DNA of 64,000 bases. Origin: Vulcanimicrobiota bacterium (GTDB lineage: Bacteria > Vulcanimicrobiota > Xenobia > Xenobiales > JADMJV01). The position numbers were made by a program, and so were the translations under genes. This document shows positions 1,971 to 63,871 of the stretch, piece after piece (the stretch's first letter is position 1; every line of letters begins with the position of its first letter). Location of the stretch: assembly GCA_050250895.1 (NCBI GenBank), contig JBFWNU010000001.1, positions 1,512,008-1,576,007 on the forward strand. The letters run 5' to 3'. A model generated the notes under the pieces. It was not told the origin of the DNA. It made no database searches and was given only the letters and a program-made list of their open reading frames with translations.

Positions 1971-4900
1971 TTAGCGGGTCCCGGCCTTGAGCAGGTCGAC
2001 CACGTAACGGCCCAGCAGCTTGGTCTGAGCCGTCGAGAGTTCCACGAACTGAACGCTGTGATGCCAGCCGTGTTCGGGATGCTCGCGCGATTGCAGCACC
2101 TCGCAGAGCACATCCAGACCCTCGTGGATTCCGAAAGACTCGACGCTGAGGGTGATGCGATCTCCGGGCGAGAAGGCTTGCTGGCAACCCAGCAGGGCTC
2201 CACCCAGTCCGAGGTCGAGACAGGTTCCAGCCACCTTGCTCCCATCGGGCAGGACCAGATCCACCGCCAGATTGGCTGGGGCACGAGTGAATTTGCGCTG
2301 ATTGAAGACCTTGGATTGCATGCCCACTTTGTTGAGCAGCGAGACGACCCAACTGCGGCCGAGCACCTCGGGAGATTCGCTAAACTGCAATCCGGCTTCC
2401 ATCACGCCGGCGTCGGACACCTTGAACCAGACCACCGTGGCGGCCACGCGGTCGTCGGGGTCGTCTTCGCCCCGATAGGGGTTGCTGATGTGCAGGGTCT
2501 GGCCGCGGTTGACCTGGCGCGAAACCACCAGGCGCATACCACCCAGGCTGATGTCCTTGATGGTGGCGTGAAAAATCTGGTTGCCGAAGAAGCAGTTGAC
2601 GTCGTACTCGCAGGAGAGGCGGACCAGACGACGGCGCTCCTGAGGGCTAGCGCCGGGGGAGGCGACGGGAGTGGCCACTCCATCCTTGATGGCCGATAAG
2701 ATACCCTCGCGGGTGCCTCCATCGCCTTGTTCCTGCACGCTTTTGAGTGCCTCGAGAATAGTCGAGCGATACTCGTCGGGAGGCTGCTGCAGTCGCGGCA
2801 CCTCGTTGTCGACGGGGGCCAGTAGCTCTTCTTTCGAAGGCTCCGGCTCTTCTTCAGGCGCTTCGCTCTCGGCCTCTTCTTCGACGGGCTCGGGGACCAG
2901 TTCCTCAAGGTCGGCTACGGCCTCGACCTCGGGAGCCGGGCCGGGGGCCTCGAACAGGGCGTCTCCCAGATCGAGTGTGGCGGGCCCGGCAAACAAGGCG
3001 TCTTGAGTGTCAGCGGGACCCTGCAACAGGGCGGGGCCCTCGAGCTGAGCCACGTCACTCTCTGGGACCCCTTGAAGGGTTTCTTCGGCCTCGGGAGCTA
3101 CCAGGTCGGCACGCGGTTGCTCCACCTCTGGGGCCGGGGCTTCCTGCTCGGACTCCTCGGCTACTACTTCGACGGGCTCGGCACCCTCGTCCTCGAGAGC
3201 CAGCTCGTCTTCACCAGAGTCCTCGACACCGTCGTCTTCTAGCGCGAGTTCGTCGTCCTCGGAGTCTTCGACCGCGTCGTCCTCCAGGGCCACTTCGTCT
3301 TCTTCAGAGTCCTCGACGTCGTCGTCTTCTAGCGCGAGTTCGTCTTCCTCGGAGTCTTCGACGGCGTCGTCCTCTAAGGCAAGCTCTTCTTCCTCAGAAT
3401 CCTCCAGGTCTTCATCCTCGAGGGCAAGTTCATCCTCTTCAGCTTCTTCGCCATGCACTTCGGCCTCGAGGTCCGCGTCAAGCACGAGGTCATCTTCTTC
3501 GAGTTCGAGTTCTTCACCGATCTCGTCGATGTCTTCCAGGGCGAGCTCTTCTTCGATAGAAGCCTCATCCTCGGGCTCCAGAGCCAGCTCTTCGTCGGTG
3601 AGGGCCAGTTCCTCGTCTTCTAGCTCGAGCTCTTCGTCAAGACCCAAATCCTCTTCGAGTTCGGCTTCTTCGAGGGCCAACTCGTCTTCCAGACCCAGTT
3701 CCTCGTCCTCGAGGTCGAGTTCGTCGTCTTCCAGCGCAAGCTCTTCGTCTTCCAGCCCGAGTTCGTCCTCGATGGAAGCTTCCTCTTCGGGCCCGAGGGC
3801 GAGTTCCTCGTCCTCCAGGTCGAGTTCCTCGTCTTCAGGAGCGAGTTCGTCTTCGGCCGACTCTTCGCCGTCGTCTTCCAGGTCGAGGCTCTCGTCTTCA
3901 AGAACCAATTCGTCCTCGACGGGCGCTTCTTCGGCGACTTCGTCTTCGAGGTCAAGCTCTTCGTCCTCGAGGTCAAGCTCGTCGTCTTCGAGGGCCAGCT
4001 CGTCTTCGCCGGACTCTTCGTCTTCGAGGTCGAGTTCTTCGTCCTCGAGAGCCAGCTCGTCTTCGCCAGATTCTTCTTCGGCTTCTTCGTCCTCAAGGTC
4101 GAGTTCTTCGCCTTCGAGGGCCAGCTCGTCTTCGCCGGACTCTTCGTCTTCGAGGTCGAGTTCTTCGTCCTCGAGGGCCAGCTCGTCGTCGCCAGATTCT
4201 TCCTCGACTTCTTCGTCCTCAAGGTCGAGTTCTTCGTCTTCGAGGGCCAGCTCATCTTCCCCAGGCTCTGCGGGCGCCTCGGCCACCTCGACCTCGAGGT
4301 CCAGTTCCTCGTCTTCGAGATCGAGCTCTTCGTCCTCGAGGTCCAGTTCTTCTTCGGGCGATTCTTCTTCAGCTTCGGCGACCTCCAGCTGGGCCCCGAT
4401 GGCGTCGATGTCTTCGAGTTCAAGCTCCGCGGGGGCCGGCTCCGGCTCCCCCGATTCCTCTTCGTCCTCGAGATCGAGTTCGTCTTCTTCGACCTCTTCG
4501 TCTTCTAGAGCTAGCTCGTCTTCCTCAGACTCCTCGACCTCTTCGTCCTCGAGGTCGAGTTCTTCGTCCTCAGACTCCTCTTCGACCTCGTCGTGCTCGA
4601 GAGCCAGTTCCTCTTCCTCGGACTCCTCGTCCTCGAGAGCTTCCTCGTCTTCCTCGACATCATCGTCTTCGAGGCCAAGTGCATCTGCCTCGGACTCTTC
4701 CTCGACGTCATCTTCTTCAAGGTCTAGCTCTTCATCGTCTTCTTCCTCTTCCTCGGACTCCTCGACATCGTCATCCTCGAGGTCGAGGTCGTCTTCGTCT
4801 TCTTCTAGTTCGTCCAGCTCGAGTTGGGGGATATCCAGCAGGGTCGGTTCGGGCCGTTCTTCGCGCGTCCGAAAGGCGATCTGGTCGAGAGGCTCGTCGT

Positions 4901-5756
4901 AATCGTCCTCCTCCTCGTCCTCTTCGTCTTCGGCCTCGTCGTCGTACTCTTCATCTTCGTCTTCGTCTTCATCGTACTCTTCATCTTCGTCTTCGTCTTC
5001 GTCTTCGGCCTCGACCTCGTCGTCGTCTTCCTCGAAGTCTTCGTCTTCCTCGAAGTCTTCGTCTTCCTCGAAGTCTTCGTCTTCCTCGTAATCTTCGTCT
5101 TCCTCAACGTCGTCTTCGAAAAGCTCCTCGCTGTCGAAGTATTGCTCGAAGTCGTCTGGCTCCTGGTATTCTTCGACTTCTTCGAACGAGTCATAGCGCT
5201 CGAGCGACTCGAAACGGCGAAAGTGGCGTTCGATCGACTCCATCTCGTCAGGGCCGCGCTCGAAGGAGGTGTAGTAGAGGGGATCCTCGATGCCGACGCC
5301 ACGGAAGTAGTCTCGGAATGAGGGCAGCGGCTCCTGATCGTCGGGTTCGAAACGGCGGCGGCCGCGCCCGCTCGGGGCCGGTCCGCGGGTGGAAAAGATC
5401 TGGGGCATTTCGACCAACCCGGCCAGCAAGCCCATCAAGCGGGCGCGCTCTTCTTCCGCTTCCCAGATCATTTGCTGGATCAGGCGGGTAGATTTGCCGC
5501 TCTCCTGGCGTTCGGAGAGGTCGGTGCGCAGTTTACGCAGGATCGATTCTACGTCAGAGAGCCGGTCGCGGAGGTTCTCGAGGCGCAGAATGGCAAGACG
5601 GTCACTGGCGAAGTCAATAAGACCCTTCAGTTCCCGCTCTTCGTTCTCCAAGCCGGGCGCCGGCCGGTCTTCCTGGCTTTCTATCGCCAGTTCTTCAAAG
5701 ACCTCAGCCTGCTTCCTCAGCCAGGACGAAACTCTTGATGAATCGAACTCTGGCAT
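1971..5756 (-). CDS. Giant acidic protein: N-terminal coiled-coil domain, ~700-aa D/E/L repeat region, two C-terminal PilZ domains
   Basis: PilZ motifs ERRRLVR...DISLGG and QRKFTR...DLGLGG; long ELDLEDE/ELALEDE repeats. Confidence 0.85.
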   Translation of the reverse strand: MPEFDSSRVSSWLRKQAEVFEELAIESQEDRPAPGLENEERELKGLIDFASDRLAILRLENLRDRLSDVESILRKLRTDLSERQESGKSTRLIQQMIWEAEEERARLMGLLAGLVEMPQIFSTRGPAPSGRGRRRFEPDDQEPLPSFRDYFRGVGIEDPLYYTSFERGPDEMESIERHFRRFESLERYDSFEEVEEYQEPDDFEQYFDSEELFEDDVEEDEDYEEDEDFEEDEDFEEDEDFEEDDDEVEAEDEDEDEDEEYDEDEDEDEEYDDEAEDEEDEEEDDYDEPLDQIAFRTREERPEPTLLDIPQLELDELEEDEDDLDLEDDDVEESEEEEEDDEELDLEEDDVEEESEADALGLEDDDVEEDEEALEDEESEEEELALEHDEVEEESEDEELDLEDEEVEESEEDELALEDEEVEEDELDLEDEEESGEPEPAPAELELEDIDAIGAQLEVAEAEEESPEEELDLEDEELDLEDEELDLEVEVAEAPAEPGEDELALEDEELDLEDEEVEEESGDDELALEDEELDLEDEESGEDELALEGEELDLEDEEAEEESGEDELALEDEELDLEDEESGEDELALEDDELDLEDEELDLEDEVAEEAPVEDELVLEDESLDLEDDGEESAEDELAPEDEELDLEDEELALGPEEEASIEDELGLEDEELALEDDELDLEDEELGLEDELALEEAELEEDLGLDEELELEDEELALTDEELALEPEDEASIEEELALEDIDEIGEELELEEDDLVLDADLEAEVHGEEAEEDELALEDEDLEDSEEEELALEDDAVEDSEEDELALEDDDVEDSEEDEVALEDDAVEDSEDDELALEDDGVEDSGEDELALEDEGAEPVEVVAEESEQEAPAPEVEQPRADLVAPEAEETLQGVPESDVAQLEGPALLQGPADTQDALFAGPATLDLGDALFEAPGPAPEVEAVADLEELVPEPVEEEAESEAPEEEPEPSKEELLAPVDNEVPRLQQPPDEYRSTILEALKSVQEQGDGGTREGILSAIKDGVATPVASPGASPQERRRLVRLSCEYDVNCFFGNQIFHATIKDISLGGMRLVVSRQVNRGQTLHISNPYRGEDDPDDRVAATVVWFKVSDAGVMEAGLQFSESPEVLGRSWVVSLLNKVGMQSKVFNQRKFTRAPANLAVDLVLPDGSKVAGTCLDLGLGGALLGCQQAFSPGDRITLSVESFGIHEGLDVLCEVLQSREHPEHGWHHSVQFVELSTAQTKLLGRYVVDLLKAGTR
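3230..4810 (-). repeat. Coding repeat array (ELDLEDE/ELALEDE units, including a ~126-bp tandem duplication near 4008/4134)
   Basis: gccggactcttcgtcttcgaggtcgagttcttcgtcctcgag recurs 126 bp apart; many 21-nt degenerate units. Confidence 0.85.
5023..5105 (-). repeat. 18-bp coding tandem repeat (EEDEDF x ~4)
   Basis: tcgtcttcctcgaagtct at 5023, 5041 and 5059, with a variant at 5077. Confidence 0.9.
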
Positions 5757-5939
5757 CCCCTTAGCGAGCGAGGCTGACCCGGTGCGCCCGAACGGTGGGC
5801 TCCCCTCGCCCTAACACGATCCCCTTACGGCTACGTAGTTAGCATATGCAACGAATTCCGTTCAAGTCGGCTCGATGCCATCCCTGCTAAACGAAGCAAT
5901 TTTTAGAACAAATGTTCCCCTTTGGGAGGGGACTTGGCC

Positions 5940-6437
5940 TTAGGCTGAGTCTACGACTTCTCGCTGGGAGGCCTTCTTACGGGCCTTCTTGGAGGGGCGA
6001 GCATCGGGCGCGATTTCTCGGCTGCGCCGTACGTCAGGGTTGGGTTTGCGAGCTTTTTGGCGCCCGCGAAGGCGTCGGCTTTCTTCTTCGGCTCGCACAG
6101 CCGCCGTGATGATGTGGTGCAGGCGGACGCGTTCGGACTCGGCGATGCTGATGAACGACTGGATCAAAGAGACCGGACGCCCTTCTTCTACTCGCTTTTG
6201 TTGGTCCTCTTGCAGGCCGCGCAAGATCGATTCGACATCTTCCATGTTCTCCTGGAGAGCTTCCAGCCGCAAAGACGCCAATCGGTCCTGAGCAAGACCG
6301 AGCAGGTCTTCCAGGCGATCTTCCTCTTCCTGGCGTGATTGAAAGGTGTGGGACTTCTCACCTTCCAGAAAGAGTTCTTCTAGCGCCTCTGCTTCAGAAC
6401 GCAGTCTCGACGCAAGCTCGAAGCTTGACTCCCTCAT
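5940..6437 (-). CDS. Coiled-coil protein paralogous to the N-terminus of the giant PilZ protein, with a basic tail
   Basis: SD GGAGG upstream; AQDRLASLRLEALQENMEDVESILRGL aligns with ASDRLAILRLENLRDRLSDVESILRKL. Confidence 0.8.
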   Translation of the reverse strand: MRESSFELASRLRSEAEALEELFLEGEKSHTFQSRQEEEDRLEDLLGLAQDRLASLRLEALQENMEDVESILRGLQEDQQKRVEEGRPVSLIQSFISIAESERVRLHHIITAAVRAEEESRRLRGRQKARKPNPDVRRSREIAPDARPSKKARKKASQREVVDSA

Positions 6438-6598
6438 CTACGAAGTCCTCCAGTTCCCCAAATCGAAATTGAAAAATCGAACATACGATCTTTTAATATC
6501 CCTCAACCCAAATCCTGCCTGAGGAAGAATCCTTACAAACCAGGAGTTCTCCTCCCTCGCAATAATTGATCTGCCAGAATCTTTTCGCCGGAGGACCC

Positions 6599-6862
6599 AT
6601 GAGTCGCCCCAAAGTCGAGATCTATACCTGGCAGACATGTCCTTATTGTTGGAGGGCCAAACAGTTGCTTGAAGATAAGGGGATCGCCTATATCGAGCAT
6701 TCCGTCGACGGCGACGACGAGGCCCGGGCGAAAATGATCGAGCGCGCGGGCGGCCGGCGCAGCGTACCCCAGATTTTTATCAACGACACTCACGTCGGGG
6801 GATGTGATGACCTTCATGATTTGGAGCGCCAGGGTAAGCTCGATGCTTTGCTGGCAGGTTAA
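6599..6862 (+). CDS. grxC: Glutaredoxin 3
   Basis: CPYC active site, SVPQIFIND..VGGCDDL; SD GGAGG before ATG 6599. Confidence 0.95.
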   Translation: MSRPKVEIYTWQTCPYCWRAKQLLEDKGIAYIEHSVDGDDEARAKMIERAGGRRSVPQIFINDTHVGGCDDLHDLERQGKLDALLAG

Positions 6863-9758: not shown

Positions 9759-12194
9759 CTACCGTTTTCGGGCTAGCTCGGGATAGCGCCGATCAATAAT
9801 ACGCAAGAACGCCTCGACCAGGTCGGGGTCGAAGTGGGTAGCTTTGCCCTCTTCTAGGATTCGCCGCACCTTGGCCACTTCCATGCCAGCTTTGTAGGGG
9901 CGCTCGGCGGCCAGGGCGTCAAACACGTCAGCCACCGCGATGACCCGAGCCGGCAGGGGAATCTGGTCGCCGCTGAGGCCGTCGGGATAGCCCTTTCCGT
10001 CCCAGCGCTCGTGGTGGCCTCGGATGGTGGGGCACAAATGGCGAAGCGACGCGATGGGATAGACGATCTGCTCGCCATAAATGGGGTGCATCTTGACCAG
10101 TTCGTACTCTTCCTCGGTCAGGCGCCCCGGCTTGTAGAGAATTTCCTTGGGAATGTGGATCTTGCCGATGTCGTGCAAGAGCCCAGCTCGCAGCATATCC
10201 TGCCCTGACATAAACTCGCCGATCTGGTCGAGTTTGGCGTCCGACTCCCCGTCGAGCAAGAAGCCCATTTCGCCGATATCCTTGAGCATGGCCCCGAACT
10301 TGATCTCTTTGCGGGTGTTCTTGTCGCTGATCCCAACCTCGTCGGCCAGTTCCATGGCCAGATCCAGCACCCGGGCCGAGTGGGCATAGGTGAACTCGCC
10401 GCCCATCTTGAGGATCAGGCCCAGGCTGTTGACGGCCGTGTTCTCGTCGAGTTCTTCCAGTTCTTCGTCGCGGTAGAGCTTTTTCAGCAGGGCCGAGATA
10501 GAGTGTCCGGCCATCCGCGAGGCGGTGTCGAAGCTGGCCTGAGTCGGCACCATGGTGTTGAGTTTGGCCATGCTCAGACGATAGGCGTCGAGGCTGGTGG
10601 TCAGACGCAGGCCGCGAACGTTGGCTTTTTCGGCGGCCTCGGTGCCCGCCTGGGCCGGAGGACCGCCACCGGGACCTTTGCCACCCCCTTCGCGCTCCCC
10701 GGCTTTCATCGACCCCGTCAAGGGATGGCGGGCCGCGGCCTGATGGACCGACTGGCGCGAGTTGGCCGGGGCCTGCTGCTGTTGCTGCTGCTGGGCCTGC
10801 GCGGTGCTGGCCTGGTGAGGATCGTTGGGTTTGCCGGCCGCTCCCCGATAGGAAGGCAAATAGCCCGACTCGTCGGGTCGCCCTGGCCGGCGCATCGAGA
10901 TCGGCTCGACCCGGTCTTCGAAGTTGCTGCGGCTGGACTCGAACAGCCCGTCGAGAACGGGGTTGAAGATGGGGATGTGGGAAGTGACCGGCCGCTTGCC
11001 GGTGGCCGCTCCTCGAGGCGGTTGGCCGGGGGTTTGCTGGGCCCGTGGCATGCCCTCGGAGGATAGTTGCCGTTTCTCTCCGGGCAGGCTGGCCTGGAGC
11101 GGACGACCGCTATCGCCCGGCCGGCCGGGCATGAAGCCCGACTTGGCGCCCCGCAGCGAGGCTCGTCGCGGCTCGCCGAAGCTCTCGCCAGCGGTGCGGC
11201 GAGTGCGCAGCAGTTGAGGGCCGCTCTCGGCCTCTTCGGAATGGTGGTGGGTCTGGGTGGCCGACGCGTCCCGCTTGTCCTTGGTCAGGGCCTTGGTGTC
11301 TCCGGTCAGAGCAGCCCCCCGCAAGAGTTCGGAGCTGCGGGTAGTGTCCTCTGCTCGGGGGGCGGCCGGAGCTTGACGGGCGGGCTCGGATTGGGTCTCG
11401 CGTTTGACCTGCGTTTCGGCCCGCGGGGCGGGTTGGCTGGGAGCCTGCCGCTCTTGTTTGAGCAGGCTACCGCGCTCGCTCGACGACGGCGCTGTTCTAG
11501 CCTCGTTCTTGGGTTGGGCCGTGGTCTCGGTCCTGTTTTGTGGTTGGGGGTGCTCGTCGCTGGTCTCGTGGGCGGTGGTGGTCGCAGCCGCGTCGGGTTT
11601 GCCGGCCGGCTTCTGGGCCTTGCTCTGGGCGGTGCCGGCTTCGGTCTGCTGCTGGGGTGTCTCGGGCTGTTTCTCGCGCGCTTCGAGGCGCGCGCTGACC
11701 CGTTCCATGTGCTGGCGCAGCTGCGCCAGGGCCTCGCGGGCCTGGCTCTGAAACTTTTCTTGCGGTGTTTGAGCCTGTTGGCTCTTTTGGGTGGCTTGCT
11801 GCTCTTTGGCTTGTTCTGATTTGTTGGTGTGGGCGGCTTTAAAGGCGGCGGTGGCGCGACTCATCTTGCGCAGCAGTTCGAAGTCGTTGACATCGAAATT
11901 CTCGAGGTCGGTGAGATGGGCCATGGCTTCTTCGCCTTCGAGGGCTGCTTCGTGGTCGAGCTTTCCGCTTTCGCGCAGGGTGTCCCAGGTGCGTTTGAGC
12001 TGATCGGCCGCGCTAAAGAGCCGCTGGCGGGCCAGACTTTGTTGGTTGACGCCGTCTTGAGCGGTCGCAGCGGCTGGCTCTTGGGAGGGTGCTTGAGGCT
12101 TGGCCTGATCGGCTTCACTGGCGCCTTTGCGAACGCCGTCGGCAGAGGTGAATCCCTTCTGCTGGACATTGATCATGGAAGTGAAGTCGAACAT
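9759..12194 (-). CDS. HD-GYP domain protein (putative cyclic dinucleotide phosphodiesterase) with a ~550-aa Q/P/A-rich disordered N-terminus
   Basis: HSARV...LLHDIGK...HHERWDGKGYPDGL...VADVFDAL...RPYK. Confidence 0.88.
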   Translation of the reverse strand: MFDFTSMINVQQKGFTSADGVRKGASEADQAKPQAPSQEPAAATAQDGVNQQSLARQRLFSAADQLKRTWDTLRESGKLDHEAALEGEEAMAHLTDLENFDVNDFELLRKMSRATAAFKAAHTNKSEQAKEQQATQKSQQAQTPQEKFQSQAREALAQLRQHMERVSARLEAREKQPETPQQQTEAGTAQSKAQKPAGKPDAAATTTAHETSDEHPQPQNRTETTAQPKNEARTAPSSSERGSLLKQERQAPSQPAPRAETQVKRETQSEPARQAPAAPRAEDTTRSSELLRGAALTGDTKALTKDKRDASATQTHHHSEEAESGPQLLRTRRTAGESFGEPRRASLRGAKSGFMPGRPGDSGRPLQASLPGEKRQLSSEGMPRAQQTPGQPPRGAATGKRPVTSHIPIFNPVLDGLFESSRSNFEDRVEPISMRRPGRPDESGYLPSYRGAAGKPNDPHQASTAQAQQQQQQQAPANSRQSVHQAAARHPLTGSMKAGEREGGGKGPGGGPPAQAGTEAAEKANVRGLRLTTSLDAYRLSMAKLNTMVPTQASFDTASRMAGHSISALLKKLYRDEELEELDENTAVNSLGLILKMGGEFTYAHSARVLDLAMELADEVGISDKNTRKEIKFGAMLKDIGEMGFLLDGESDAKLDQIGEFMSGQDMLRAGLLHDIGKIHIPKEILYKPGRLTEEEYELVKMHPIYGEQIVYPIASLRHLCPTIRGHHERWDGKGYPDGLSGDQIPLPARVIAVADVFDALAAERPYKAGMEVAKVRRILEEGKATHFDPDLVEAFLRIIDRRYPELARKR

Positions 12195-14612: not shown

Positions 14613-16919
14613 ATGCGGCAGCGAGTGGTTCAATGGTTTTTTTTGGTGCTTCTGACGGGTCGCCTCTGGGCGGCTCCGCCACTGGCTGTTCCCGATCCCT
14701 CTAACGGTCAGCTGCTGTTGCTCAAAGACGGGGCCGTGAGGGCCCTGGCCCTCGAAGATGGCCAGGAGCTTTGGAGAACTGCCGTCGACGGAGCCTCGGA
14801 AGGCAAGCTCCTGGTGGTCGACGGTCAACGCTACCTCGCTACCCCCGACAAACTCTACTCCGTGGCTCGCGACGGTGAGGTCGAGCAGTTGGCCGAAATG
14901 GATTGGGGGCCGCAAAGCTATTCTGGCGGCTTGCTCTATGGCTTTGGTGGAAGTGTCTTCTATCGTGGACCCGTGCCCTGGGAAGCCAAAGTGGCCAAGA
15001 TCCAGGCGGTCCTCGAGGCCCCGGATGCGCTGGTTCTCACTACCGAAAAAGAGCTGCTGGTGCTCGACAAAGAGGGCAAGCTGCTGTGGAAAAGCGCGCG
15101 AGCGGCGACCGACCAGGGCCCCTGGCTGCTGAAGGACCTGGTGGTGGTGGGTCGTGGCCAGGACCTGCTAGGCTTCGCTCTGGCCGATGGGCAGCGGCGC
15201 TGGGACTATCGTCTCCGAGGCGATCTGGTCGGCGCCCCCGCCGTCAAAGACGACCTGATGCTGGCATCGTTCAAGGTGGATACCCAGCATTATGTGGTCG
15301 GCATGGGGGCCGACGGCCGTCCGCGTTTTCGCGTGCCCATGGAGGGGACGGTGGTCTCCATGTTGCCTGGCTCGACCCATCTGATTTTCTGCGAGGGTGA
15401 GGGTGGCATCAGCATCTCGGCGCTAGATGAAGCGGGAGTGGCCACCGGGCGATGGGGCTTCGCCGGCGAACTGGTCAAGGCCGTCGAGATGGATGGCAAA
15501 GTCTATGTTTTCATCCGCACCAAGCTGAGCGAGCCCAAATTCGATCTGCCCGGGGCGGCCTTCACCTGGAAACTATTCACCCCCAAGCTCAAACCCGTCT
15601 ACAACCTCAAGACCGGTGAGCCCATGCAGGAAGATATCCAGGGCTACCTGTTGCTGTCGTGGGTGCCGGGCCAGACGCCTGACCAGCTGGCTTCAGAGCC
15701 CCGCCAGAGTCTGGTCGGTCCTATTCAGGTGGTCGAGGACACTTTGCTCTATGCCACCCAGTTTCGCCCCGAGCGTCAGGCCGGCCAGCGGGTCAAGACC
15801 GATTGGCGTCACCCTTACGAGCCGGTGGCCGTGCATGGCGTTCATCAGGGTCAGAGCTGGACCTACGCCCCCACCGAGCGCCGCCAGGCCCCTAGCAAAG
15901 ACCGCCTGCCCGACAAAGCCTTTCCGGTGGATGGCACGAGTTTGCTCTTCACCACGGAAGACGACCGTCTGGCTGCCCTCGCGTTGGCCAGCGGCCAACC
16001 CCTGTGGGAGACCTCGAAGATGCGTCTCGACGAAGGGTCGGCCAGTATCGTGGCTGACGACCAGGGATTGACGGTGTTGACCCAGGTCGGGGCGCTGCAC
16101 TATGCCTATCGGGTCAAGGCTGGTCAGGTGGGCTGGCACAAACCCCTCACCGACGTGTTTTTGTGGGACAAGTTCAACAATCTCATGGGCGTGCTGATCC
16201 TGTGTGCGGCTCTGTGCTACTTCATCTTCGCGGCTCGCCGCCGGGATCTGTTCATCCGGCGCATTGCCGGTCTCAACGCCCTCGACGAGGCGGTGGGCCG
16301 GGCCACCGAGATGGGCAAACCCGTCCTCTATGTTACCGGGCTGGCCGATGTTGACGACATTCAGACCCTGGCATCGCTCTCGATCCTGGGTCACGTGGCC
16401 AAGAAGACCGCCGAATACGACACTCCGATCCTGGTGCCCACCAGCCGGGCGGTGGCCTTCAGCGCGGCTCAAGAGGTGGTCAAGGAGGCCTACACGGCCG
16501 CCGGCCGCCCCGACGCCTTCGTGGCTGATAATGTGCGCTATCTGACCGACGACCAGTTCGGCTACACGGCCGGGATCGACGGCATGATGCTGCGCGAGCG
16601 TCCGGCCGCCAACTTCTACATGGGCAAGTTTTATGCCGAGTCTCTGATTCTGGCCGAGACCGGCCACGCCACCGGGGCCATCCAGATTGCCGGTACGGCG
16701 ATGCCCAGCCAGTTACCGTTCTTCGTGGCCGCCTGCGATTACACGCTGATCGGTGAAGAATTGTTCGCGGCCTCGGCCTATCTTTCCAAAGACCCGCTCC
16801 AGGTCGGCAGCTTACGCGGCCAGGACGTGGGCAAGGCGATCGTGATGGTGTGCCTGGTGCTAGGCGCCCTGGCCATCACCTTCGGTTACGATTTCGTCAA
16901 AGGTTGGTTCGCCACATGA
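14613..16919 (+). CDS. Signal peptide + PQQ/BamB-like beta-propeller + TM + DUF6754-like alpha/beta domain + TM
   Basis: Propeller repeats ALEDGQELW, ALADGQRRW, ALASGQPLW; C-terminal IRRIAGLNALDEAVGRATEMGKP...LIGEELFAASAYL matches DUF6754 as I recall it (not searched). Confidence 0.75.
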   Translation: MRQRVVQWFFLVLLTGRLWAAPPLAVPDPSNGQLLLLKDGAVRALALEDGQELWRTAVDGASEGKLLVVDGQRYLATPDKLYSVARDGEVEQLAEMDWGPQSYSGGLLYGFGGSVFYRGPVPWEAKVAKIQAVLEAPDALVLTTEKELLVLDKEGKLLWKSARAATDQGPWLLKDLVVVGRGQDLLGFALADGQRRWDYRLRGDLVGAPAVKDDLMLASFKVDTQHYVVGMGADGRPRFRVPMEGTVVSMLPGSTHLIFCEGEGGISISALDEAGVATGRWGFAGELVKAVEMDGKVYVFIRTKLSEPKFDLPGAAFTWKLFTPKLKPVYNLKTGEPMQEDIQGYLLLSWVPGQTPDQLASEPRQSLVGPIQVVEDTLLYATQFRPERQAGQRVKTDWRHPYEPVAVHGVHQGQSWTYAPTERRQAPSKDRLPDKAFPVDGTSLLFTTEDDRLAALALASGQPLWETSKMRLDEGSASIVADDQGLTVLTQVGALHYAYRVKAGQVGWHKPLTDVFLWDKFNNLMGVLILCAALCYFIFAARRRDLFIRRIAGLNALDEAVGRATEMGKPVLYVTGLADVDDIQTLASLSILGHVAKKTAEYDTPILVPTSRAVAFSAAQEVVKEAYTAAGRPDAFVADNVRYLTDDQFGYTAGIDGMMLRERPAANFYMGKFYAESLILAETGHATGAIQIAGTAMPSQLPFFVAACDYTLIGEELFAASAYLSKDPLQVGSLRGQDVGKAIVMVCLVLGALAITFGYDFVKGWFAT

Positions 16920-61723: not shown

Positions 61724-63871
61724 TTATTGACCTCCGTCGAGGCAACGCGCGATGTAGCGGGCGACGGTGCGAGCCTCTACTGGATCGACATCCTTGAACT
61801 GAATACCGATATGATATTTATCCTCGACTGGGCGAGTCCAGGCCACCTGGCCAACGACCTGGACCACCGGCAAGCCGAACTCCAGCATCAGTCTTACCGA
61901 AAAGTCTTGCTCTTCGGGCAGAGGAGTGTCGAGCTGAAGGCCCAGGCCTTCGGGCGAGAGGTTGCCTGCATAGCACTCGGTCCACTCTTCCTGGTCCTGG
62001 GCCTTGAGCTGGATGGGCAACAGCCGGTAGAGGCGATAGCGAGAGCGACGATGCATTTCGGACAAGCCTGATAGGAACTGCTCGAGGCGCTCCTTGCTCT
62101 CGTCCACCGGGTTACTGAAGGCCAACCCATGCACGAAGGTTCCCCCCACCAGGTCTCGCATCCAGACCACCCGGCAGGGCAATTCGATGGTGCCTTCCGA
62201 GGCCATTTCGAGTTCGGCCAGGGGAATGGACAGGTCGAATTGACCGTCGGGTAACTGGTGGTCGACATTGACCCGCATCCCCCCGTGGGAGAGGTCGACC
62301 AGGAAAAGGTTCATCGGACGAGTTTCGCCGTTGGCTCGCAACTCGGCCGAAAGGATCTTGTTCAGGCCGGCGTTCTTTCGCGGACTCTGGCGTCGCTCGG
62401 GACGAACTTCCGTCATCGCTCCTCCTGATTCATCCTTCCCTTCGTTCGGCGCCGTTTTCCTGCTAGCGTGTTTTTCAAGCTTGGCCCGCACCTGAGGGGC
62501 CAGGGCTGGGCCGGCTGTCTGGGCGGCTGCTTCTAGATGCGGCCGCATCTCGTCGCTGCGGCCCAACTCTTCGAGCGCACAGGCGATGTTGAACTGGCAA
62601 TTGGCCAACACCTGAGGGTTGGGGTTGGGTTGGCGCTGCCAGATGGCTAAAGCCTGGCGAGCGCACTCCAGGGCTCGCTCGAAGTTCTGGCCAAGAAAGG
62701 CCACCAGTCCGCTGGAAGCCAGCGCCTGAGCCGAGGTCGGATGGTCCGGGCCAAAACGGGTGAGGGTGGCGGCGGTGACTTCGTCCGTGACCGCCAGGGC
62801 CTGCTCGTAATGTCCGGAGTGGTGGTAGAGCTGGGCCAGCTCTTCGAGGGTGGCAAGCACGGCCGGATGCAACTTGCCCAGGCGCAGCCGGAAGATGTCG
62901 AGCGAGCGTTGATAGAGAGTTTCGGCCTCTTCGAGTCGCTGACCCGTCAAGCAGATGCCGGCCAGATTCTTGACCGCCGAACCCACTCGAAAATCGTCTT
63001 GTCCGAAGGCGGCCTCGCGAATGGCCAGCGTCTGTCGACAGGCGTTCTCGGCCTGGTCCAGCTGCCCTAAGGACGCATAGGTGGCCGCCAGCGACTCGAG
63101 AGCGTCGCCCACCATCGGATGACTGGGCCCCAGACGATTGACCAAAATCTCGTGCCCCTGACGTTGATAAGAAACGGCCTGAGCCAGATTGCCCGAGGCC
63201 TGGAGCTGATGGCCCACGGCCAGCAGTACCTGGGCCATCTGAGGGTCCTGGTCACCCAGGCGACTCTGATACAGCCTCAGGCCTCGCTGGCGAGAGGCCT
63301 CGGCCCCAACGTGATCGCCGCTTTGCTCCTGGGCCTGGGATAGCTGCAAGAGCGCGGCTGCAACCTGGGCATGGTCGACGCCGTAGTGACGCATGCGCGC
63401 CGTGACCATTTCGCGCAACACTTCGACGGCCCGGCCGGGGCGACGTTGCTCGGTATAGAAGTTGGCCAGACTCTCCAGGGTCTGGTCGAGGCGTTCCGGA
63501 GGGGCCTGGCGGGCCAGTTCGAGAGACTCGGTCAGATAACGTTCGGCCTGCTCGGTGCGGCCTAACTCCTGGCAGACGGTGGCTAGATTGGATAGGGCCA
63601 GTCCGACTTCCGGGTGGGTTTGACCGAGGTTCTCGACCGTGATTCCCAGCGCTCGTTGAAGCAGCTCGAAGCTTGAATTCAGCTTGCCTTGAGCCTGGTG
63701 GGCCGCGGCCAGATTGTTGAGCGTCAGAGCCAGCCGTGGGTCCACCGCCCCGAACTGGTCGGCTTGCTCAAGAGCAGCCACGTAAGCCTCTTCTGCTTGC
63801 TGGTAGTCTTGTCGGGAGAACGCTTCTTTGCCGAGGTTGATGAAGGTCTCCCAGAGATAGGGGTCACTCAT
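61724..63871 (-). CDS. TPR_12 (kinesin-light-chain-like) repeat protein fused in frame to tandem PilZ domains
   Basis: LALTLNNLA, HPEVGLALSNLA repeats; ERRQSPR..DLSHGG and HRRSRYR..NLSPEG. Confidence 0.85.
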   Translation of the reverse strand: MSDPYLWETFINLGKEAFSRQDYQQAEEAYVAALEQADQFGAVDPRLALTLNNLAAAHQAQGKLNSSFELLQRALGITVENLGQTHPEVGLALSNLATVCQELGRTEQAERYLTESLELARQAPPERLDQTLESLANFYTEQRRPGRAVEVLREMVTARMRHYGVDHAQVAAALLQLSQAQEQSGDHVGAEASRQRGLRLYQSRLGDQDPQMAQVLLAVGHQLQASGNLAQAVSYQRQGHEILVNRLGPSHPMVGDALESLAATYASLGQLDQAENACRQTLAIREAAFGQDDFRVGSAVKNLAGICLTGQRLEEAETLYQRSLDIFRLRLGKLHPAVLATLEELAQLYHHSGHYEQALAVTDEVTAATLTRFGPDHPTSAQALASSGLVAFLGQNFERALECARQALAIWQRQPNPNPQVLANCQFNIACALEELGRSDEMRPHLEAAAQTAGPALAPQVRAKLEKHASRKTAPNEGKDESGGAMTEVRPERRQSPRKNAGLNKILSAELRANGETRPMNLFLVDLSHGGMRVNVDHQLPDGQFDLSIPLAELEMASEGTIELPCRVVWMRDLVGGTFVHGLAFSNPVDESKERLEQFLSGLSEMHRRSRYRLYRLLPIQLKAQDQEEWTECYAGNLSPEGLGLQLDTPLPEEQDFSVRLMLEFGLPVVQVVGQVAWTRPVEDKYHIGIQFKDVDPVEARTVARYIARCLDGGQ

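Follow-up and report, generated by a model that had tools for sequence, protein, structure and literature searches.

The window, a stretch of 64,000 nucleotides from the genome of a Vulcanimicrobiota bacterium (contig JBFWNU010000001.1, positions 1,512,008 to 1,576,007), carries within its first 7 kb two tandem genes on the minus strand, a short one upstream and a long one after it, whose products share an N-terminal head domain of a family not described before. In the short protein the head is followed by a basic tail, and in the long one by a giant polyanionic segment and two consecutive PilZ domains, predicted to act as a receptor of cyclic diguanosine monophosphate (c-di-GMP). We tentatively read the pair as a lineage-specific two-protein c-di-GMP effector module of the Xenobia (Eremiobacterota), in which the long protein would be coupled by the heads to its small paralogue, and the polyanionic segment would serve as tether or docking platform to a C-terminal module that c-di-GMP switches. 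New here are the shared head, the strict pairing of a short with a long paralogue and the fusion of a giant polyanion to tandem PilZ domains; the C-terminal domains are of a known kind. In the literature on acidic or disordered PilZ proteins, on tandem PilZ proteins and on Xenobia/Eremiobacterota, no description of this architecture was found. The two genes are laid out as follows, in window coordinates.

5940..6437, minus strand: gene of the short paralogue (P0002, 165 residues), an open reading frame (ORF) encoding the three-helix head and an Arg/Lys-rich tail
6084..6437, minus strand: shared three-helix domain of the short protein (residues 1–118), defined by alignments with 16 invariant columns; no family match
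5943..6083, minus strand: basic disordered tail of the short protein (residues 119–165), net charge +11, isoelectric point (pI) 11.8
5757..5939, minus strand: spacer of 183 bp that separates the two genes; a terminator-like hairpin within it (5916–5932) is a lead only
1971..5756, minus strand: gene of the long paralogue (P0001, 1261 residues, 142 kDa, pI 4.05), an ORF
5403..5756, minus strand: shared three-helix domain of the long protein (residues 1–118), from the AlphaFold2 model
5187..5402, minus strand: Arg/aromatic-rich linker (residues 119–190), delimited by composition, with an island similar to RY[DE]SFE
3117..5186, minus strand: hyper-acidic low-complexity region (residues 191–880), net charge −413, with EDEDFE-type hexads and then about 40 LxLE heptad-like units
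2652..3116, minus strand: Pro/Ala/Glu-rich linker (residues 881–1035), with two D-A-L-F-x-x-P motifs (DNA 2943–3002)
2367..2639, minus strand: PilZ domain 1 (residues 1040–1130), with RRLVR and DISLGG, by Pfam PF07238 and own-genome search
2001..2303, minus strand: PilZ domain 2 (residues ~1152–1252), containing RKFTR as its linker motif and DLGLGG, where Gly stands for Ser, by Pfam PF07238

The common N-terminal domain, which had been noticed by the initial annotation, was borne out over the first ~118 residues. Residues 9–139 of the long protein align with residues 8–145 of the short one with 53 identities in 138 positions (38%; BLASTP with compositional adjustment, E 2e-17). The Smith–Waterman score of the first 125 residues is 201, to be compared with a mean of 41 and a maximum of 76 in 2000 plain shuffles (z 21.8), and with a mean of 71 and a maximum of 127 in 2000 shuffles that kept the hydrophobic/polar pattern (z 7.9). 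Because the score exceeds the pattern-preserving shuffles, the similarity is not the product of coiled-coil or heptad bias, a reservation under which it had originally been proposed. An alignment of 26 heads from 15 genomes (15 from long and 11 from short proteins) defines a domain of 118 residues with 16 invariant columns: M1, L13, A17, E21, E39, L43, L54, R58, L59, D68, V69, R83, G87, A100, E103 and R106. Exactly two copies of the domain are present in the window's genome.

By Pfam, NCBIfam, PADLOC, PHROGs, PDB-sequence and fold searches the head is a domain family not described before, in agreement with the earlier impression that it was uncharacterised. A Pfam scan of the 26 members returned scattered sub-threshold matches, the best of them with an E value of 0.00029 in a single member, and none reached a cut-off; no family match was found in NCBIfam, PADLOC or PHROGs, the best E value of the head profile against PDB sequences was 0.12, and an ESM Atlas search gave no usable match. 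The name DUF327/YaaR, under which a relative of the short protein (P0049) appears in its source, was not upheld, with no such Pfam match at E ≤ 0.1 for P0049 or at E ≤ 1 for the window protein. AlphaFold2, run on the 26-sequence alignment, predicts a three-helix coiled-coil unit with helices at residues 6–28, 34–86 and 91–115; the mean predicted local distance difference test (pLDDT) is 80.4, rising above 95 at residues 61–110. Foldseek found nothing for this model at E ≤ 0.001, the matches being generic helical ones. In an exhaustive structural comparison (VIA) the best match, at Z 9.9, was the bMERB three-helix domain, and unrelated helical models reach about 13. The bMERB domains of EHBP1 (6zsi) and Mical (5szg) share with the head three long antiparallel helices (root mean squared deviation 2.8 over 118 residues), but they are eukaryotic Rab-binding domains, only 14% identical to it, and their Z lies under the helical noise; the modelled resemblance is one of shape only. 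A functional reading based on likeness to bMERB, PspA/ESCRT-III or the seryl-tRNA-synthetase arm was rejected, these being generic helical matches.

PilZ proteins are the commonest c-di-GMP receptors, and the output route of most multi-domain ones is not understood. PF07238 matches the long protein in two stretches (93.5 bits, cut-off 22.5), both of which were recovered in a search of its own genome. Two PilZ domains are present in the window protein, in all seven complete orthologues of its family and in the four long database representatives. The signatures ERRRLVRL...DISLGG of barrel 1 and QRK[FY]TRA...D[LI]GLGGA of barrel 2 are invariant in 8/8 orthologues, an RxxxR motif preceding each barrel (RRLVR and RK[FY]TR). 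The second signature of the family, D/NxSxxG, takes the form DISLGG in barrel 1 and D[LI]GLGG, with Gly for Ser in all eight, in barrel 2. A model of the last 290 residues contains two barrels with pLDDT 84–93 (71 overall), and Foldseek matched both barrels at once to MotI/DgrA (5vx6, E 1.6e-9 over 238 columns), PlzA (7.7e-9), MrkH (5.3e-8) and YcgR (1.2e-7), as well as to PlzD and PP4397, with E values between 1.6e-9 and 1.4e-6 over 229–266 columns overall. The TM-scores (template modelling scores) are low (0.27–0.45), as would follow from a model that does not reproduce the angle between the barrels, and the PDB-sequence search of the tandem region gave a chance hit only (E 0.41). Judging by the invariant motifs and the predicted two-barrel fold, the long protein is probably a c-di-GMP receptor, as the initial annotation had supposed.

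The known receptors MotI/DgrA (5vx6), PlzA (7mie), MrkH (5ked), YcgR (5y6f), PlzD/VCA0042 (2rde) and PP4397 (3kyf) consist of two consecutive β-barrels, as is predicted for the C-terminal 220 residues here, and they have in common with the long protein an RxxxR in the inter-barrel linker, the motif to which passages of a preprint on the two-barrel class ascribe the c-di-GMP switch (bioRxiv 10.1101/2020.02.11.943704). They are, however, stand-alone proteins of 210–250 residues, whereas here the module ends a protein of 1261. The first barrel of the YcgR type is a PilZN/YcgR_N domain without ligand motifs; in the long protein barrel 1 is a canonical PilZ domain with RxxxR and DxSxxG, and barrel 2 carries DxGxxG. 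No match to the PilZN family was found in Pfam at E ≤ 1, both barrels being called PilZ. In tandem PilZ proteins one domain typically lacks both motifs, according to passages of the same preprint (bioRxiv 10.1101/2020.02.11.943704). The PilZ–PilZ order is the same in the long protein, but both of its domains keep RxxxR and are fused to about 1000 further residues. Across the whole genome, 103 PilZ matches exceed the Pfam cut-off, and no fewer than 27 open frames contain at least two of them. This architecture is thus very common there, and tandem PilZ seems to be a sensor cassette that the lineage can reuse. The repertoire of c-di-GMP receptors in the genome is unusually large; in the same window, a large protein encoded at 61724..63871 (minus strand) combines TPR-like helical repeats with a C-terminal tandem PilZ.

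Between the head and the sensor, residues 191–880 contain 58–71% Asp and Glu. The first part, residues 191–300, is 71% D/E with EDEDFE-type hexads, and the rest, residues 301–880, contains 58% D/E and 17% Leu and consists of units of 7 and 15 residues, with 40 LxLE copies that are encoded by DNA repeats of 21, 45, 69, 90 and 126 nt. No other open frame in the 9.5-Mb genome is as acidic as that of the long protein, whose net charge is about −455 and whose pI is 4.05. Other large acidic frames of the genome are found at C3:724167-732284 (plus strand, 2706 residues, net −330) and C10:91452-94706 (plus strand, 1085 residues, net −188). Acidity is kept in the orthologues (23–43% D/E; net −166 to −412 in the complete ones) and the repeat sequence is not, LxLE units being abundant solely in the window's genus; conservation of acidity without sequence fits selection on composition. 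From that composition the ~700-residue polyanionic segment is presumed to be disordered. The long protein has no hydrophobic segment, the maximal Kyte–Doolittle mean over 19 residues being 1.1, inside the second PilZ domain, and it is predicted to be cytoplasmic, having neither signal peptide nor membrane segment. Of the short motifs in the linkers, islands similar to RY[DE]SFE were recognised by eye in sequences of genus g2 and of the sister family described below. The motif [LF]F[AESD][GSA][PS] occurs in one to four copies, roughly 80–165 residues ahead of the first PilZ domain, in 10 of the 12 complete long proteins. When the window protein was shuffled 2000 times, a single shuffle contained two or more copies; since the pattern comes from the very sequences in which it was counted, it is a lead only. 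The idea that the DxLF motif is a β-clamp-binding site, for which the consensus is presumably QL[SD]LF, was rejected since the Gln is not conserved. In two long proteins of the sister family (L026 and L029), a helical stretch of ~300 residues of mixed charge, rich in Glu, Arg, Lys and Ala and with repeated 'DREARRAARRAAQE' units, lies at residues ~200–520 between the head and the acidic region; it is absent from the window protein.

The head is sharply restricted in its distribution. A profile search of 1.84 billion representative proteins returned 16 clusters at E ≤ 0.001, all of them members of the short or the long family. A word-based search with the short protein gave 81 clusters at E ≤ 1e-3, all but two small fragments being 55–98% identical to it; when run with head residues 1–135, the same kind of search found no long relatives among 1847 candidates, a matter of sensitivity, as the full profile search recovered them. 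Among 301 genomes of the phylum, convincing matches are confined to the window's own family (f1; 11 of 15 genomes, in addition to the window's) and a sister family of the same order (f2; 4 of 5), all with genomes of 5–9 Mb. The 19 small-genome members of a third family of that order (f3) have no match apart from one chance-level hit of 21 bits, and three 21-bit matches outside f1 and f2 (G019, G269 and G300; E about 1e-3 per genome) were treated as chance. The range is thus two large-genome families within one order of the Eremiobacterota/Vulcanimicrobiota, of the class Xenobia by record titles. The lack of a match in three f1 genomes (G003, G007 and G009) was not taken to show loss: their contigs with the neighbouring alaS gene end 17–275 bp past it, just before the position of the locus in sister genomes, and the locus is unassembled there. 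The acidic-repeat gene appears to break short-read assemblies, and the locus appears to be systematically lost from metagenome-assembled genomes (MAGs) in this way. Two MAG records with close relatives are titled Burkholderiales and Selenomonadaceae; the same contigs were placed in the window's genus and family, and the labels are probably wrong. In one database entry (P0094, 446 residues) head residues 1–86 are fused to an SBP_bac_5 domain, probably a chimeric or mis-called frame.

Within this range the two forms travel together. Both are found in 15 of the 16 genomes with a match, the exception being a genome that is 64% complete, and each of the 12 matching f1 genomes has the short gene immediately upstream of the long one and on its strand; the co-conservation that the initial annotation had made a condition of its proposal was thereby confirmed by the synteny survey. 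In a maximum-likelihood tree the short and long clades separate with 99/96 support, which points to a single duplication before f1 and f2 diverged. Branches are short in the short clade and much longer in the long clade, so the tree depicts a slowly evolving and a fast-evolving lineage issued from one old duplication.

That the long gene is real, and not a low-complexity open frame or a mis-assembled repeat, hardly admits of doubt. Repeats do break the assemblies of relatives, and the region is shadowed by a Ser-rich ORF on the opposite strand (3529..4902, plus strand), which is the antisense of the acidic repeats. Against such an artefact, head, acidic region and PilZ domains belong to a single open frame in the window gene and in seven complete orthologues, eight genomes from three genera in all. 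The G+C content at third codon positions of the long gene (0.69) is similar to that of neighbouring genes. A relative ~95% identical was found in RNA-library contigs from four runs of one wastewater study, the whole short gene in all four and the long head in three. The differences to it fall at third codon positions in 12 of the 12 listed for the long head and in 14 of 19 in the short gene, which speaks for purifying selection on both frames. For practical purposes the artefact is refuted by the conserved architecture. The gene descriptions given earlier, of two ORFs, a D/E/L-rich region and two PilZ domains, likewise agree with the ORFs, the composition and the PF07238 matches.

Whether the two heads meet was addressed by predicting the complex of residues 1–120 of the long protein with residues 1–122 of the short one, using custom alignments and three controls. 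The ipSAE (interaction prediction score from aligned errors) of the head pair is 0.45 (0.45, 0.54 and 0.42 in individual runs) and 0.00 in the three controls; the pLDDT of the partners is at least 82, and at least 96% of the contacts agree between runs. In a calibration of the score, the pass mark is reached by 116 of 157 solved complexes and by 2 of 215 mismatches; of those that pass, 18 solved complexes and both mismatches have values of 0.60 or less. The hetero-oligomer postulated by the initial annotation stands out from its controls, and the prediction gives it weak support.

In the module that we tentatively propose, c-di-GMP would bind to the RxxxR ahead of barrel 1 and to the RxxxR of the inter-barrel linker, and binding would lock the two barrels in a closed arrangement, as in YcgR, MotI, PlzA and MrkH, changing the partners of the C-terminal module. 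The three-helix heads would be the oligomerisation unit, by which the long protein associates with itself or with the small paralogue, which is much better conserved. The small protein might then be a constant core or anchor whose basic tail is available for binding either a polyanion, such as nucleic acid, polyphosphate or membrane, or the acidic spacer, and the long protein a c-di-GMP-switched arm on a long, charge-repelled tether that may also present short docking motifs. Several observations weigh against this proposal. The fold matches of the head are generic for helical hairpins (best Z 9.9, noise level ~13). At an ipSAE of 0.45 a pass is wrong more often than it is right, except where the pairing was likely beforehand, and the score does not separate hetero- from homo-association of the heads. 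The share of the second PilZ domain in ligand binding is uncertain, since Gly replaces the Ser of D/NxSxxG. The f2 assemblies break inside the repeats, leaving the C-termini of the long proteins unassembled, and the sole apparently complete f2 long frame, which contains a run of N, shows no PilZ. The RNA-library contigs may include DNA, and they enter the spacer from both sides with none bridging it. In two f2 genomes, G016 and G020, separate contigs carry the two genes; they are truly unlinked, as the short gene sits away from the ends of its contig of 86 kb. The basic tail of the short protein, part of the original description, holds in the window protein (net +11) and in f1 (+4 to +10 in 11 orthologues) and fails in f2, where two orthologues have an acidic end (−7). 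Neither linkage nor charge complementarity can therefore be required.

These f2 observations also bear on the view that the paralogues are independent, their heads homo-oligomerising and the two proteins never meeting. Adjacency in f1 would then be a trace of tandem duplication; the long protein would be a PilZ effector among a hundred or so, and its small neighbour would have an unrelated role, perhaps tied to the divergent glutaredoxin gene. The unlinked f2 genes agree with this, as do the weak complex prediction and the very different rates of the two clades, and a glutaredoxin homologue tracks the short gene, not the long one, adjoining it in 13 of 13 relatives' loci that hold it, f2 included. 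We nevertheless find independence somewhat unlikely, for 15 of the 16 genomes with a match have retained both copies from before f1 and f2 separated, the window's genome holds these two copies of the domain and no third, and the 16 positions invariant across both clades, seven of them charged, suggest that the clades are under one constraint, for instance an interface in common. The acidic segment could alternatively be the working part itself, as a polyanion decoy or buffer, a mimic of nucleic acid or polyphosphate, or a sink for Mg2+, Ca2+ or polyamines, sequestering cations or basic proteins (the tail of the small paralogue included) with its availability set by c-di-GMP at the PilZ end. 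The extreme charge, the highest negative one of any ORF in the genome, and the persistence of acidity without sequence across genera are what selection on composition would give, and a basic partner tail is present in f1. Yet the charges are grossly mismatched (+11 and about −450), the f2 partner tail is acidic, nothing ties the PilZ state to the acidic segment, and the hydrophobic LxLE and LF motifs suggest docking sites over pure charge; we regard such a role as unlikely.

Two assemblies on a larger scale were also considered. One is a c-di-GMP-switched polyelectrolyte system, in which the small paralogue would nucleate an assembly through its head and basic tail, the giant polyanionic paralogue would join through the same head as a charge-driven, client-recruiting phase or brush (with LxLE and DxLFxGP as docking motifs), and the tandem PilZ would open or close the assembly with c-di-GMP. 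We hold this to be distinctly unlikely; if true, an uncultured phylum would have invented a type of cytoplasmic organising hub that has not been described in bacteria. The other is a hub, polar or positional, that would resemble HubP, FimV or PopZ in function, with heads self-assembling into a matrix and the acidic region recruiting clients, possibly as a condensate. Oligomerising helices followed by a long acidic disordered region with short conserved motifs do resemble hub proteins. For HubP/FimV, passages of one article list a LysM-like domain in the periplasm, a transmembrane segment, an extensive acidic cytoplasmic region and a C-terminal FimV domain (PMC12918733). The long protein shares with them the long, repeat-built acidic cytoplasmic region but lacks the other three of these four features (LysM, membrane segment and the TPR-like FimV domain, in whose place it has the tandem PilZ), so membership in HubP/FimV, with which the initial annotation had compared the pair, fails. 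HubP and FimV themselves have neither PilZ nor a small paralogue. No Pfam family besides PilZ was found in the long protein at E ≤ 1. PopZ, a cytoplasmic protein with a helical oligomerisation element and an acidic, disordered client-binding region, differs in the order of its parts and has no Pfam or sequence relation to the pair, whose acidic region is ~10 times longer and which carries a c-di-GMP sensor. The neighbouring genes (glutaredoxin, alaS and BtuF-like) give no hint of motility, division or segregation, and a hub of this kind is, in our estimate, very unlikely.

In each case the pair represents an undescribed, sharply lineage-restricted domain family kept as strict paralogues, with a polyanionic segment among the most extreme attached to a second-messenger sensor, in a host genome with about a hundred PilZ domains from a phylum with almost no cultured members. 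If the heads bind each other, the module would be a compact system in which to study the coupling of a disordered polyanion to a nucleotide switch; otherwise the long protein simply adds one to the uncharacterised PilZ effectors, accompanied by a small conserved coiled-coil protein.

Upstream of the short gene, and divergent from it, lies the remaining annotated feature of the locus:

6566..6862, plus strand: glutaredoxin gene (Pfam Glutaredoxin, E 5.9e-23)

Further upstream, beyond this gene, are alaS and a gene of the HD_5/HD-GYP type, so that a c-di-GMP-type HD-GYP (HD_5) gene is found 3 kb from the pair, which, with the 103 PilZ matches of the genome, speaks for the proposed module; a gene for a BtuF-like binding protein lies downstream of the pair. 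The hairpin of the spacer does not stand out from chance, the region having 7 terminator-like sites and shuffles predicting 7.2. The HD_5/HD (HD-GYP-type) protein itself (9759-12194, minus strand) carries ~550 low-complexity residues rich in Gln, Ala, Pro and Glu ahead of its catalytic domain; in relatives from genus g3, where the gene also adjoins alaS, conservation is limited to the last ~250–270 residues. Farther along the window, a protein of 768 residues encoded at 14613-16916 (plus strand) combines a PQQ_2/BamB-like propeller with a DUF6754 domain (E 1.3e-117).

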